Positions 483 through 5,830 of a stretch of 5,893 nt of DNA are shown piece by piece. The DNA comes from a virus (taxonomy: Duplodnaviria; Heunggongvirae; Uroviricota; Caudoviricetes). The notes beneath the pieces are model-generated. The model saw only the letters and a list, made by a program, of their open reading frames with translations, made no database searches and was not told the origin of the DNA. Position numbers and translations under genes: made by a program. The stretch lies in IMG/VR virus record IMGVR_UViG_2698536372_000022; one strand, 5' to 3'. Position 1 is the stretch's first letter. Every line of letters begins with the position of its first letter.

Positions 483-667
483 TGTGCACATCCTTTTGGC
501 ATCAGACGTAAACGAGCCAGCATTGAAACAATGCATATTTTATTTAATAGCTCCCGTTCTTGTTTTCTCTTGTTAATGGCATCTTCAGTAAATACAGGGT
601 TACTGATAGTGACACCAATTTCAAAACAACCTTCAGACGTATTAACGTTTGGTAATAACGTTTTCAT
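479..667 (-). CDS. dicB: Cell-division inhibitor DicB (62 aa; acts with MinC on FtsZ)
   Basis: Internal Met of the 479..772 ORF gives MKTLLPNVNTSEGCFEIGVTISNPVFTEDAINKRKQERELLNKICIVSMLARLRLMPKGCAQ, which is the E. coli DicB sequence as I recall it. GAGGA lies about 9 nt upstream of the ATG at 665-667 on the minus strand. The longer N-terminal extension in the ORF track has no ribosome-binding site and is not expected. Confidence 0.9.
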   Translation of the reverse strand: MKTLLPNVNTSEGCFEIGVTISNPVFTEDAINKRKQERELLNKICIVSMLARLRLMPKGCAQ

Positions 668-836
668 TATCGCGTCCTCAACAATGAATTTTGTGATGCA
701 GTGCCTGGTGCCTCCAGGTGACGTTAACCAGTTAACAATTAACGTCGGATACAGAGAATCCACCCATAACACTGTTTTTGGTTTTAACTGTTCCGCGTGC
801 GCTTAGCCGTATTCACCGCATCACAAAATTCACTTT

Positions 837-894
837 AAAAAGGGCGGCAGAGCAGTCACGGAGTAAAACTGATACCGCCAAACGTCACCAGAAA
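837..894 (-). ncRNA. dicF: DicF small regulatory RNA (53-nt mature sRNA plus U-tail of its intrinsic terminator)
   Basis: Reverse complement of 842-894 reads TTTCTGGTGACGTTTGGCGGTATCAGTTTTACTCCGTGACTGCTCTGCCGCCC, followed by TTTTT (837-841). This is the DicF sequence as I recall it, with its GC stem and U-tract terminator. It sits between the ydfB/ydfC region and dicB, as in the Qin dicB operon. Confidence 0.9.
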
Positions 895-1730: not shown

Positions 1731-1886
1731 TCACTCACCTGAGTTTCTTTCCAGCCAGCGACGGGCACCATTTTCGGTTTTAAACGTTTTGCTTTTGGTA
1801 TACGTCATCGCGGTGAACGTGCCGTCCTGGTTGGGGAACACGCCACATACCAGAGATTCGCTGTTGCCAAGATCGATAGTATCCAT
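1731..1886 (-). CDS. ydfA: YdfA-family small prophage protein (51 aa, DUF1391-like)
   Basis: Internal Met of the 1731..2042 ORF gives MDTIDLGNSESLVCGVFPNQDGTFTAMTYTKSKTFKTENGARRWLERNSGE. GAGGT lies 7-8 nt upstream of the ATG at 1884-1886 on the minus strand. It is the first gene downstream of the dicA-like repressor gene, the ydfA position in Qin. The N-terminal extension in the ORF track is unsupported. Confidence 0.85.
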   Translation of the reverse strand: MDTIDLGNSESLVCGVFPNQDGTFTAMTYTKSKTFKTENGARRWLERNSGE

Positions 1887-1962
1887 GCTGACCTCATTTC
1901 CCCTTAACGCCGGGGTAGCGGAACTGTTTGCTGAGAACACCGTGCGGTGTCTTGATGGAGGT

Positions 1963-1991
1963 AATTTAGTTTTCTCATTATTTTTCGTCAA
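1963..1991 (-). promoter_or_regulatory. Candidate sigma70 promoter of the leftward dicB operon (ydfA-ydfB-dicF-dicB-ydfD)
   Basis: Minus strand reads TTGACG (-35, plus-strand 1986-1991), a 17-nt spacer, then TAAATT (-10, plus-strand 1963-1968). The predicted transcription start is about 70 nt upstream of the ydfA ATG. Operator-like motifs overlap the spacer/-10 and lie just upstream of the -35. Confidence 0.5.
1964..1977. promoter_or_regulatory. Operator-like site O3 (imperfect TGAG-N4-CTAAA) overlapping the -10/spacer of the dicB-operon promoter
   Basis: Minus strand reads aTGAGAAAACTAAA. It shares the 10-nt core TGAGAAAACT with the sites at 2001-2014 and 2537-2550. Confidence 0.4.
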
Positions 1992-2014: not shown

Positions 2015-2078
2015 GTGTTGGCGCAAGATAAAGCCAATACATTGAAATGTAAGGCTTTAAAATTTTGTGAAGGGATGA

Positions 2079-2486
2079 TTATTGATGCTTGTTGCGTTTG
2101 CGAGCCTCTAATAGCTCGGTGAACAGGCGATTAAAATTCTCAACGCGGGCGCGGAGTTCGCTGAGTTGTGCTTGTTGCTCTGATTTAGGAAGTGCGCGAT
2201 ACAAACGCAGCATCTCTAACTCATCTTCCGATAAGTCTAAGGCACTATCGAGTGAAACAGGGGGAGCTGGTGTTTTGTCCTCGTCGCCAAACAGTATCCA
2301 AGTTGGTGAACATTGCAATACCTCGGCGAGGCGATGCAAATTTTGCCCGCGCGGGGCTGTATGGTCACTTTCCCATAATGAAATTGATGAGCCAGATACG
2401 CCAGCAGCTTTGCTTAAACCGTTTTGACTTAAGCCTACCTGCTTACGTCTTTCTCTAATGCGTTGACCTAAAGTTTTCTCGTTCAT
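2079..2486 (-). CDS. dicA: DicA-like prophage repressor (XRE-family HTH, 135 aa; no S24 peptidase domain)
   Basis: From the second Met the product is MNEKTLGQRIRERRKQVGLSQNGLSKAAGVSGSSISLWESDHTAPRGQNLHRLAEVLQCSPTWILFGDEDK... It aligns along its full length with E. coli DicA as I recall it (METKNLTIGERIRYRRKNL...VLQCSPTWILFGDEDK) and has the same length. There is no Shine-Dalgarno before the ATG at 2484-2486, so it is leaderless-like, as is common for cI-type genes. It is divergent from the cro-like gene. Confidence 0.9.
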   Translation of the reverse strand: MNEKTLGQRIRERRKQVGLSQNGLSKAAGVSGSSISLWESDHTAPRGQNLHRLAEVLQCSPTWILFGDEDKTPAPPVSLDSALDLSEDELEMLRLYRALPKSEQQAQLSELRARVENFNRLFTELLEARKRNKHQ

Positions 2487-2507
2487 ATTTAGATATCTTA
2501 ATAACCC

Positions 2508-2537
2508 TTGACTTGAGATTCCTTGAGTGATTAGCAT
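2508..2537 (+). promoter_or_regulatory. Candidate rightward early promoter for the dicC-like operon
   Basis: TTGACT (2508-2513), an 18-nt spacer, then TAGCAT (2532-2537). The palindromic operator at 2537-2550 sits at the predicted transcription start. TTGAG half-sites recur at 2513, 2523 and 2537 with 10-bp spacing. Confidence 0.4.
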
Positions 2538-2550
2538 TGAGAAAACTCAA
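2537..2550. promoter_or_regulatory. Operator-like palindrome O1 (TTGAG-AAAA-CTCAA) in the dicA/dicC divergent intergenic region
   Basis: Perfect 5-bp inverted half-sites around an A4 centre, located between the divergent repressor and cro-like genes. The same core is found at the dicB-operon promoter. Confidence 0.5.
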
Positions 2551-2563
2551 TATTGGAGGTGCG

Positions 2564-2791
2564 ATGTTTAAATCAGACGTAATTAATTTTTACGGTACGA
2601 AAGCCAAAGTAGCGAAAGCTGCTGGCGTTGACCCATCTGCTGTTTCTCAATGGCAAGAGCTGGTTCCTGAAGGTCGCGCGATGCGTCTACAGGAGGCATC
2701 TGGCGGCGAGCTTCTGTATGATCCCAAGGTTTATGACGAATATCGTAAGACGAAGCGGGCGGGGCGGTTGAACAATGAAAATCACTCCTGA
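2564..2791 (+). CDS. dicC: DicC/Cro-like transcriptional regulator (75 aa, YdaS/DicC family HTH)
   Basis: ATG at 2564 with GGAGG 4 nt upstream. Product MFKSDVINFYGTKAKVAKAAGVDPSAVSQWQELVPEGRAMRLQEASGGELLYDPKVYDEYRKTKRAGRLNNENHS. The C-terminal half matches E. coli DicC as I recall it. It is divergent from the repressor gene. The TTG start at 2537 in the ORF track is less likely. Confidence 0.85.
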   Translation: MFKSDVINFYGTKAKVAKAAGVDPSAVSQWQELVPEGRAMRLQEASGGELLYDPKVYDEYRKTKRAGRLNNENHS

Positions 2792-3296
2792 ACAGGCTCG
2801 TGAGGCTCTGGATGCCTGGATATGTCGACCAGGAATGACACAGGAGCAGGCGACGATATTAATCACTGAAGCATTCTGGGCTTTGAAAGAGCGCCCGAAC
2901 ATCGATGTTCAGCGTGTCACAGATGAAGGTGGCGCGGTTGATCAGCGAGCACTTGGCGTTAATCGAGTGAAGATATTCGAACGCTGGAAGGCTATCGACA
3001 CCAGGGATAAGCGTGAAAAGTTCACGGCGCTAGTGCCTGCAATTATGGAGGCTATTCGGATTAATGATTTCAGGTTGTATCGTGAAATTAGTGACGGAAA
3101 AAGCATCACGTACATGATCGCCGGGTTAAACAAAGAATATGGCGATGTGGTGGAGTCCGGACTGCTTTTTGCTGATCCTGCCGTAGTGGATCGTGAAACT
3201 GACGAACTTATAGAAAAAGCAATTGCTTTCAAACTTGCGTATCGACAGCAATACCAACAAAAAGCTGGATGGAATTATGAGCCTTCTTTTTGCTGA
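2775..3296 (+). CDS. ydaT: YdaT-family protein (PF06254-like; proposed CII-equivalent regulator, historically annotated as toxin YdaT)
   Basis: The N-terminus MKITPEQAREALDAW and the block KIFERWKAIDTRDKREKFTALVPAIMEAI follow the pattern of Rac YdaT as I recall it (MKI...RW...REK...L.PAI). It overlaps the dicC-like stop by 17 nt and lies in the cII position of the early-right operon. Confidence 0.8.
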   Translation: MKITPEQAREALDAWICRPGMTQEQATILITEAFWALKERPNIDVQRVTDEGGAVDQRALGVNRVKIFERWKAIDTRDKREKFTALVPAIMEAIRINDFRLYREISDGKSITYMIAGLNKEYGDVVESGLLFADPAVVDRETDELIEKAIAFKLAYRQQYQQKAGWNYEPSFC

Positions 3297-4735: not shown

Positions 4736-5830
4736 ATGATCAAAGAGACTGTTACGATGAGTCATAAGGAACTCCACCGACTTCAGATTATTCAGGAGTC
4801 AATTAATCGACATATTACTCAGGAACAAGCTGCGGCACGCATTGGCATTTCTATTCGGCAGGTTAAACGTCTGGTGCAACGGTATAGAAATGAAGGGCCT
4901 TCTGGTCTGGTTTCCCACCGACGTGGAAAGCGTCCTAATAATTCCTTTTCTACTGAATTCAGAGCAACAGTAATTTCACTCCTCAAAGGCCGTTACGCTG
5001 ATTTTGGACCTACGTTTGCGTGCGAAAAATTGCGCGAGATACACGGTTTATCTTTATCCGTTGAAACTCTCAGAAAGTGGATGATAGAAGAGGGGTTATG
5101 GCGTGAACGCCGTCGTAAAATTGCCCGTATATATCAACGCCGCATGCGACGACCATCTTACGGTGAACTGATCCAGATTGATGGCTCACCTCATGACTGG
5201 TTTGAAAATCGAGGCCCCAGATGTACACTGATCGTTTTCATTGATGATGCCACCAGTGCGTTGATGGCGTTGCGTTTTGTGCCTGCTGAAACAACCCGGG
5301 CTTACATGGAAACCCTCCGGGGTTACCTTAATGATCATGGCGTACCGCTCGCTCTCTACTCTGATAGACACAGTATATTCAGGGTAAATAACCCAGAGCG
5401 GGAAGGTGAGCTGACCCAGTTCACTCGTGCGATAAAGACACTGGGCATCGAGCCAATCCATGCCAACAGCCCGCAGGCAAAAGGGCGGGTAGAGCGCGCC
5501 AATCAGACACTACAGGACAGGCTGGTCAAAGAAATGCGGCTTCAGAATATCAGTGATATTGAAACAGCAAATGCATGGTTGCCGACCTTTATTGAAGCCT
5601 ATAACAACCGGTTCGCTACGTCGCCTCGTACTACTGATAATGCTCATCTTGATGTGCACCATTCTGAAGAGGAACTGGGTTATATCTTCAGCCTACAGGC
5701 GAAGCGCGTTCTGTCTAAAAATCTCACTTTCCAGTACAAAAGCAGTGCGTTTCAGGTACGCAGTGAGGGCCGGGGATATCGACTTAGGCATTCGGTTGTT
5801 ACTGTATGTGAGAACTTTGAGGTAGCCTGA
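4736..5830 (+). CDS. DDE transposase of the rve (retroviral-integrase-like) superfamily with N-terminal HTH; IS481/ISNCY/IS21-IstA-like
   Basis: The N-terminal HTH region reads AARIGISIRQVKRLVQRY. The catalytic core has the DDE arrangement: D in QIDGSPHDW, D in LYSDRHSIF, and E in the KGRVERANQ signature typical of rve transposases. Alternative start at ATG 4757 (MSHKEL...). The exact IS family is not resolved from memory. Confidence 0.85.
   Translation: MIKETVTMSHKELHRLQIIQESINRHITQEQAAARIGISIRQVKRLVQRYRNEGPSGLVSHRRGKRPNNSFSTEFRATVISLLKGRYADFGPTFACEKLREIHGLSLSVETLRKWMIEEGLWRERRRKIARIYQRRMRRPSYGELIQIDGSPHDWFENRGPRCTLIVFIDDATSALMALRFVPAETTRAYMETLRGYLNDHGVPLALYSDRHSIFRVNNPEREGELTQFTRAIKTLGIEPIHANSPQAKGRVERANQTLQDRLVKEMRLQNISDIETANAWLPTFIEAYNNRFATSPRTTDNAHLDVHHSEEELGYIFSLQAKRVLSKNLTFQYKSSAFQVRSEGRGYRLRHSVVTVCENFEVA

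Follow-up and report, generated by a model that had tools for sequence, protein, structure and literature searches.

The immunity spacer of an mEp460-type prophage as a probable operator region of a P22-related DicA/DicC-type switch

Introduction

The locus described here raises the question of which elements in a short spacer between two divergent regulatory genes are bound, and by which protein. We have analyzed a window of 5,893 nt of viral DNA in which this spacer occupies positions 2487-2563 (77 bp), the ATG of the repressor gene being the complement of 2484-2486 and the ATG of the cro-like gene lying at 2564-2566. In an earlier note on this DNA, copies of the pentamer TTGAG in the spacer had been read as phased half-sites. 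Our analysis indicates that the spacer is quite likely the right operator region (OR) of a P22-related switch of the DicA/DicC type, with its own specificity and of the mEp460 immunity type. Judged from the sequence, it appears to be a new specificity of a known kind, which would work like P22 immC and would belong to the DicA/DicC family.

Results

Genes and occurrence of the locus

The window carries the immunity region of a lambdoid E. coli prophage of the mEp460 type, and its DNA is a 100% match to prophage DNA of E. coli O26:H11. The immunity type is common: at least 80% of the 1.6-kb immunity region was found in 778 of 5426 complete E. coli genomes. The region is also present in phage records, with 99.7% identity in mEp460_ev081, a functional temperate phage (PMC10448788), and 99.5% identity in phage HannyBb. 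Repressor copies identical to that of the window, together with near-identical K-12-type DicA, were also seen in bins labelled Bacillota, Veillonella parvula and Collinsella (L001, L002 and L006); these loci are almost certainly mis-binned E. coli prophage contigs.

The spacer is flanked on the one side by the gene of a DicA-like repressor of 135 aa with an N-terminal HTH_3 domain (2079-2486, minus strand; Pfam HTH_3, E = 2.1e-15), and on the other side by the gene of a Cro/DicC-like regulator of 75 aa (2564-2791, plus strand; Pfam P22_Cro, E = 3.2e-16), which has a GGAGG ribosome-binding site at 2555-2559 (+). Pfam and homology agree with the earlier description of a divergent immunity spacer, flanked by the genes of a DicA-like repressor and a Cro-like protein. 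Divergent HTH repressor and Cro genes with a short operator/promoter spacer, as found here, are characteristic of P22/lambda-type immunity. A YdaT-like gene is located at 2775-3296 (+).

The repressor shows the features of the DicA/DicC (Qin-type) family, namely a length of about 135 aa, an HTH_3 N-terminus and a conserved C-terminal half, LQCSPTWILFGDED...NFNRLF..LL.ARKR (alignment by eye, 13 genome loci, K-12-type DicA among them). It was 57% identical to K-12-type DicA. Elements of a Qin-type module, in which the left promoter (PL) drives ydfA-ydfB-ydfC-dicF(-dicB), were also found downstream of PL. A DUF1391/YdfA-like ORF (Pfam) is located at 1731-1886 (-), and the names ydfA and ydfB are given by RefSeq under the region matching the window; dicB is annotated in the mEp460_ev081 record. 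Because a DicF RNA is located at 842-893 (-) (Rfam RF00039, 76.7 bits), the leftward operon under the candidate operators described below carries a cell-division-inhibitor sRNA. DicF was the one Rfam family found in the window, and the spacer and the PL leader gave no match. A sub-threshold match to STnc100 (635-844, minus strand; 34.6 bits vs a gathering score of 47) adjoins DicF.

A palindrome at the rightward promoter

As reported earlier, the plus strand has three TTGAG (2513-2517, 2523-2527 and 2537-2541) and, after the last of these, CTCAA (2546-2550). The three copies had been given a regular 10-bp spacing, and this is correct for the first interval only, the second being 14 bp. The last copy and CTCAA form the exact palindrome TTGAGAAAACTCAA at 2537-2550 (TTGAG-AAAA-CTCAA), which extends to 16 bp, ATTGAGAAAACTCAAT, at 2536-2551. 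Its proposed location at the predicted rightward start also holds, since the promoter scan places it on the -10/+1 of the rightward early promoter (PR, the dicCp equivalent). The predicted PR (2508-2537, +) consists of TTGACT (2508-2513), 18 nt and TAGCAT (2532-2537). The core of the palindrome begins with the final T of TAGCAT, and the predicted +1 falls within it; the 18-bp site around it (2535-2552) overlaps the -10 by 3 bp. The PR -35 showed no change in any relative and is the same as that annotated for P22 PR. The -10 differed by lineage (TAGCAT, TACTAT, TAGTAT, TATCAT, TAATAT, TAAACT), yet it was always TAnnnT.

In terms of number, TTGAG was not enriched across the window (14 copies vs 14.9 expected). 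Four TTGAG within 77 nt were obtained in 7 of 1000 shuffles, and some 5-mer reached at least four copies per 77 nt in 200 of 200 shuffles. Because some 5-mer clusters likewise in every shuffle, the TTGAG cluster alone is not beyond chance when multiple testing is considered. The palindrome itself is non-random, because it recurs at the second early promoter and is conserved in relatives.

We scanned the window with a matrix built from 12 sites in four other lineages only, to which the window contributed no site. The top three matches were located at 2537-2550 (22.9 bits), 2001-2014 (20.0 bits) and 1965-1978 (18.8 bits). When the window was shuffled 200 times, the best score had a mean of 11.5 bits and never exceeded 18.7, and the third-best score never exceeded 12.6. 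The palindrome at 2537-2550 is very probably the main binding site of the repressor, and a main repressor site of such a kind is an ordinary feature. With its flanks it gives the putative main operator CATTGAG-AAAA-CTCAATA at 2535-2552, the equivalent of P22 OR1 and K-12 Oc.

Candidate operators at the leftward promoter

The 13-mer TGAGAAAACTCAA at 2538-2550 was repeated exactly at 2002-2014, and an inverted copy with two mismatches was found at 1965-1978. Both of these left copies are located between the stop codon of the repressor gene and the ydfA-like gene, where the promoter scan predicted the leftward early promoter PL (1963-1991, minus strand; TTGACG, 17 nt, TAAATT), the dicBp equivalent. 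The distal left operator candidate, TGATGAG-AAAA-CTCAAGT on the plus strand (1999-2016; core 2001-2014), lies directly upstream of the PL -35. The proximal candidate, TAATGAG-AAAA-CTAAATT on the minus strand (1963-1980; core 1965-1978), lies between the -35 and the -10, its right arm overlapping the -10, and is placed like P22 OL1. Accordingly, the same motif overlaps or flanks the hexamers of both early promoters, as in P22/lambda-type immunity. Both left sites were kept in all six lineages that we compared, despite diverged flanks and a diverged intervening sequence. The matrix scan of the window gave no third strong operator at PL.

Alignment with P22 and the weaker sites in the spacer

The window spacer aligns end to end with the OR3-OR2-OR1 region of P22, and TTGACT and AGGAAT-17-TAAGAT are common to both. 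The P22 layout is ttcat-AGTTAAGTCATCTTAAAT (OR3)-aaac-TTGACT-AAAGATTCCTTTAGT (OR2, which overlaps the -35 by 3 bp)-agataat-TTAAGTGTTCTTTAAT (OR1), and the aligned layout of the window is ttcat-ATTTAGATATCTTAATA-accc-TTGACT-TGAGATTCCTTGAGT-gattagcat-TGAGAAAACTCAAT. From this alignment, the palindrome therefore occupies the OR1 position. The centers of the candidate operators (2543.5, 2519.5 and 2494.5) align with those of P22 OR1-3 and are 24 and 25 bp apart in the window, compared with distances of 23 and 25 bp in P22. With the matrix, however, the second and third sites reached only 7.3 and 12.0 bits, and they overlap the hexamers of the predicted repressor promoter, PRM.

The OR2-equivalent, ACTTGAG-ATTC-CTTGAGT (2511-2528), is a weak hybrid site, whose left half is consensus-like and whose right half is not. 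It aligns with P22 OR2, ACTAAAG-ATTC-CTTTAGT, which is a true palindrome, unlike the window site. The OR3-equivalent, TATTTAG-ATAT-CTTAATA (2486-2503), aligns with P22 OR3 and is the fourth-best matrix match in the window, with a score about equal to the mean best score of the shuffled window. Each of its halves departs from the consensus at position 5 and nowhere else. The site directly adjoins the start codon of the repressor gene, and the PRM -10 lies partly within it. The conservation of the OR2- and OR3-equivalents can be explained by the overlapping -35 and -10 of PRM alone.

Another copy, GAGAAAACT at 2472-2480 (-), the fourth, falls within repressor codons 3-5 (N-E-K-T). We considered it as an autoregulatory site and rejected it, as it scored at most 6.7 bits and was not conserved in four of the six lineages.

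Based on homology with P22, PRM is predicted at 2495-2523 (-), with AGGAAT (2523-2518), 17 nt and TAAGAT (2500-2495). These hexamers and their spacing are identical to those of the PRM annotated in NC_002371, and the conserved ATTCCT at the center of the OR2-equivalent is the complement of AGGAAT, the P22 PRM -35. In the same P22 record, the 5' end of the RM transcript is located 4 nt before the c2 ATG. Considering that the -10 is shared and that the window is one base shorter before the ATG, the predicted start of the repressor transcript is close to 2489, which would leave a leader of about 3 nt. In none of the six lineages was the repressor ATG preceded by a Shine-Dalgarno motif, and our literature search found no mapped dicA transcription start. 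The repressor gene had been described earlier as apparently leaderless, and this is plausible on the basis of the shared P22 hexamers; by homology with P22, a near-leaderless repressor mRNA is to be considered. Lambda makes a leaderless repressor mRNA from PRM.

Conservation and co-variation among relatives

The comparison covered six diverged lineages with the recognition helix S(G/D)SSISLWES, obtained from genome and viral-contig scans: the window type, a 96% E. coli variant, two Buttiauxella prophages and two further viral contigs. At repressor identities of 74-96%, the core was kept at all three positions, and the flanks diverge. The conserved blocks of the aligned spacers were 2487-2503, 2507-2512 (the -35), 2514-2517 (TGAG), 2519-2525 (TTCCTTG) and 2537-2549, of which the first was almost invariant and the last invariant; positions 2526-2527 and the bases adjoining the palindrome vary. 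Among the viral-contig copies of the window type, TTGAGTTTTCTCAA at OR was unchanged in 79 of 79, with substitutions just outside the core. The center was AAAA in 15 of 17 collected sites, and counts for the half-sites are partly constrained by the collecting pattern. The orientation of the A-tract was fixed at each position in all lineages, which may be simple inheritance, as a symmetric dimer does not require it.

Lineages with other recognition helices have other palindromes at the equivalent position. Within the S(G/D)SSISLWES class, the OR site matched any PL region at 13-14 of 14 bases, vs 9-12 for other helix types. In distant members of the family, the cross-match between OR and PL gave a weak diagonal (11-13 of 14), because their sites are less perfect, so that clear co-variation is limited to the S(G/D)SSISLWES class, taken as a block. 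At K-12-type DicA loci, the equivalent position carries Oc, TTGTTAGTCATAACTAACAA, which is a published, mutationally defined operator (PMC3441716) and was found only in the L007 and L008 types. In one lineage (L005), the repressor has a changed helix, OR1 and the OL sites are changed with it, and the Cro helix is unchanged. The Cro helix D(P/R)SAVSQW was constant across the lineages sharing the sites.

Discussion

Alternative explanations of the sites

In the reading put forward earlier, three direct TTGAG half-sites (2513, 2523 and 2537) lie on one helical face and bind cooperatively, the palindrome being the last element. In favor of this reading, none of the three copies is missing, the distance between the first two is exactly 10 bp, and the 2513 copy is kept as YTGAG in six lineages. 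However, the second interval of 14 bp does not agree with helical phasing, and the middle copy is not conserved. Conservation of the half-sites in relatives had been offered as a check, and the outcome speaks against the 2523-2527 copy: it is TTGCG or TTGCA in four lineages not of the E. coli type and TTGAA in some E. coli variants, while its neighbors are conserved. Also, the 2513 and 2523 copies both lie around the PRM -35 within the OR2-equivalent 18-mer, the counterpart of P22 OR2 in the alignment and, in P22, a palindrome. Direct repeats are not read by an HTH dimer of two-fold symmetry, and PL has full inverted sites only, with no such array. We consider a phased array quite improbable. 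The 2513 and 2523 copies would form no independent array, and phased half-sites would be no separate feature; the 10-bp offset of these copies would simply be the half-site spacing of one operator. In this case, drift in the right half of the OR2-equivalent appears to have produced a direct repeat, and only in the E. coli lineage.

If the TTGAG-N4-CTCAA sites are operators, they could be used mainly by a protein other than the repressor, either the Cro-like protein alone or the YdaT-like protein as a CII equivalent. Lambdoid Cro proteins share operators with their repressors, and the constant Cro helix where the sites are shared would fit such a use. Sharing of the operators by Cro is, however, expected and is no rival to repressor binding, and the sites track the repressor helix, as seen in L005, where OR1 and OL change with it at the same Cro helix. 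Against the YdaT-like protein, the repeat bound by the characterized YdaT is a different one, TTGATT-N6-AATCAA, and is located outside OR, at the end of ydaS (PMC9986795); this site gave only chance-level matches in the window. Use mainly by another protein is therefore improbable in our view. It is scarcely plausible that the palindrome functions in the RNA, as a hairpin of the cro leader, or that it arose by chance in an AT-rich spacer. UUGAG-AAAA-CUCAA could give a 5-bp stem just before the cro ribosome-binding site, and a repeated 13-mer within 5.9 kb is not rare as such. However, with the predicted +1 within the palindrome, the transcript would contain only a part of the stem, and the distal PL copy lies upstream of the -35 in DNA that PL does not transcribe. 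Moreover, the three copies are the positional homologs of OR1, OL1 and OL2 in P22, and six lineages have kept them. Binding of the repressor to an operator at the palindrome is thus the reading that we prefer.

One chance-level match to the CP-933P YdaT site, TTGAACAATGAAAATCAC at 2768-2785 (+), has three mismatches and lies at the cro/ydaT junction. Its position matches that of the CP-933P YdaT site, which is at the end of the cro-like gene (PMC9986795).

Comparison with known switches

On the one hand, the window and P22 immC have several features in common. Both have divergent repressor and cro genes; residues 1-72 of the window repressor are 47% identical to P22 C2 (216 aa), and an identity of 47% was also found between the Cro-like protein and P22 Cro (57 aa), in both cases without gaps. 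The operators of P22 and the candidate operators of the window are 18-bp sites of 7+4+7 with an A/T-rich center, and OR3 or its equivalent abuts the repressor ATG. In both, the proximal left site is located between the two promoter hexamers, of which the -10, TAAATT, is identical. On the other hand, the half-site is (T/A)(A/C)TTGAG in the window vs ATT(T/A)AAG in P22, so that position 5 is G (TTGAG) in the window vs A (TTAAG) in P22. The repressors differ at recognition-helix positions 32, 33, 37 and 40 (N32G, V33S, Q37L and R40S relative to P22), whereas the Cro-like helix stays P22-like (AVSQW). The window has one strong site in OR and two at PL vs three and three in P22. Finally, the window repressor has a short DicA-type C-terminus, whereas P22 C2 has a RecA-cleavable domain. 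Pfam showed no S24-peptidase C-terminal domain in the window repressor, and only residues 1-72 align with C2; because this RecA-cleavable domain is absent, the repressor is not of the full C2/CI type. DicA-type repressors are reportedly relieved by an antirepressor (PMC10448788).

The dicA-dicC locus of K-12 Qin belongs to the same repressor family, with 57% identity, 135 aa and the conserved C-terminal half. It also has a Cro-like DicC, ydfA...dicF downstream of the left promoter, a palindrome beside the ribosome-binding site of cro/dicC and two related sites at dicBp. In terms of specificity, however, the two loci are distinct. The operator of the window is CATTGAGAAAACTCAATA and not the Oc of K-12 Qin, and the recognition helix is SGSSISLWES in the window repressor vs SHVSVSQWER in K-12 DicA; the Cro helices differ too. 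From these differences in operators, repressor helices and Cro helices, the K-12 Qin type and the window type are therefore presumably heteroimmune. In K-12, DicA at Oc represses dicC and activates dicA, and an in vivo assay showed no binding of DicA to Om and Oa on their own (PMC3441716). The pattern of one strong site and two weak candidate sites in the OR of the window fits this behavior of Oc, Om and Oa, although the lack of binding at Om and Oa also counts against the corresponding weak sites as repressor operators.

With lambda and 434 the window shares the logic of common operators at two divergent early promoters, and a distance of about 24 bp between operator centers. The operator sequences of lambda and 434 are unrelated to those of the window, and the fold of lambda Cro differs from that of the window type. 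The cooperativity and looping of lambda CI depend on its C-terminal domain, which is absent from the window repressor.

Proposed mechanism

We propose that a repressor dimer with a P22-C2-like HTH would bind 18-bp sites of 7+4+7, with the pattern (T/A)(A/C)TTGAG-AAAA-CTCAA(T/G)(A/T). Bound at 2535-2552, it would cover the -10/+1 of the cro promoter and turn off rightward early transcription. Bound at 1963-1980 and 1999-2016, the sites that bracket the leftward -35, it would turn off the ydfA...dicF operon. Indirect readout of central operator bases is known for 434 and P22, and the repressor probably senses the nearly invariant central A-tract in this indirect way, through a narrow minor groove like that of the P22 repressor complexes. 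The P22 repressor binds 18-bp sites as a dimer that contacts positions 2-7 and 12-17; the central 4 bp are not contacted, and binding is tightest when the center is an A-tract (PMC4267663).

The weaker sites at the OR2 and OR3 positions (2511-2528 and 2486-2503) surround the -35 and overlap the -10 of a presumably weak PRM, which would give a near-leaderless repressor mRNA. They may serve in the control of PRM by both the repressor and the Cro-like protein. The Cro-like protein would use the same sites, probably OR3 first, and would thereby turn off the repressor gene. We infer the assignment of proteins to sites, the order of occupancy, cooperativity, PRM activation and the transcription starts from sequence comparison. 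Cooperativity is not transferable from P22 and lambda, because the repressor is without their C-terminal domain.

It is also conceivable, though unlikely in our estimation, that the switch uses two partly separate half-site codes. In this case, the repressor would read TTGAG at OR1, OL1 and OL2, and the Cro-like protein would read a P22-like TT(A/T)AG at OR3 and in the right half of OR2. Consistent with this are the repressor helix changes relative to P22 at a P22-like Cro helix, and L005, where the repressor helix changes together with OR1 and the OL sites and both Cro and OR3 stay the same; this is one lineage, and the PRM -10 inside OR3 confounds the comparison. If two codes exist, the regulators would be told apart by the position-5 base and not only by graded affinity for one motif.

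Returning to the single set of shared operators that we propose, we found no operator study for the mEp460 immunity type in the literature. Because no literature on mEp460-type operators was found, the list of sites is a new annotation; it contains no new principle, and the understanding of such switches is unchanged by it. The switch would control a cell-division-inhibitor operon of the dicF/dicB type. A defined operator set allows testable predictions of heteroimmunity against K-12 Qin DicA, and the sites provide a clean target list for reporters or ChIP. Additionally, the locus is a natural variant for the study of a specificity change of a P22-type HTH at one half-site position.

Other elements of the locus

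A perfect 14-nt inverted repeat, ACGCCAGCAGCTTT / AAAGCTGCTGGCGT, was present at 2398-2411 and 2615-2628. Read on its own coding strand, each copy encodes K-A-A-G-V in HTH helix 2, one in the repressor gene and the other in cro. Judged by protein sequence, the cro genes of Buttiauxella do not have this repeat.

An ORF at 4736-5830 (+), which follows a DUF977 gene, has transposase-type HTH domains and an integrase core (rve_3). This suggests an insertion sequence in the early-right region of the present prophage copy.

The PL leader (1892-1957, minus strand) contains CATCAAG, a hairpin (ACACC-GCAC-GGTGT), CTCAG ... GTTCCGCTA and another hairpin (CCCC-GGCGTTAA-GGGG). Nearly all DicA-type loci show this pattern in outline, although the stems differ in sequence, and distant members have GAAAGA loops that are reminiscent of boxB. 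It could be a nut-like or processing element. RNAalifold retained 4 pairs of the PL leader on a poor alignment.

A further hairpin was located at 2029-2059 (-), about 20 nt past the repressor stop codon, with an energy of -11.3 kcal/mol and z = -3.4, which was matched by 1 of 200 shuffles. It has a weak U run after the stem, and relatives seem, by eye, to have a hairpin there with other sequences. This hairpin may be the terminator of the repressor transcript.
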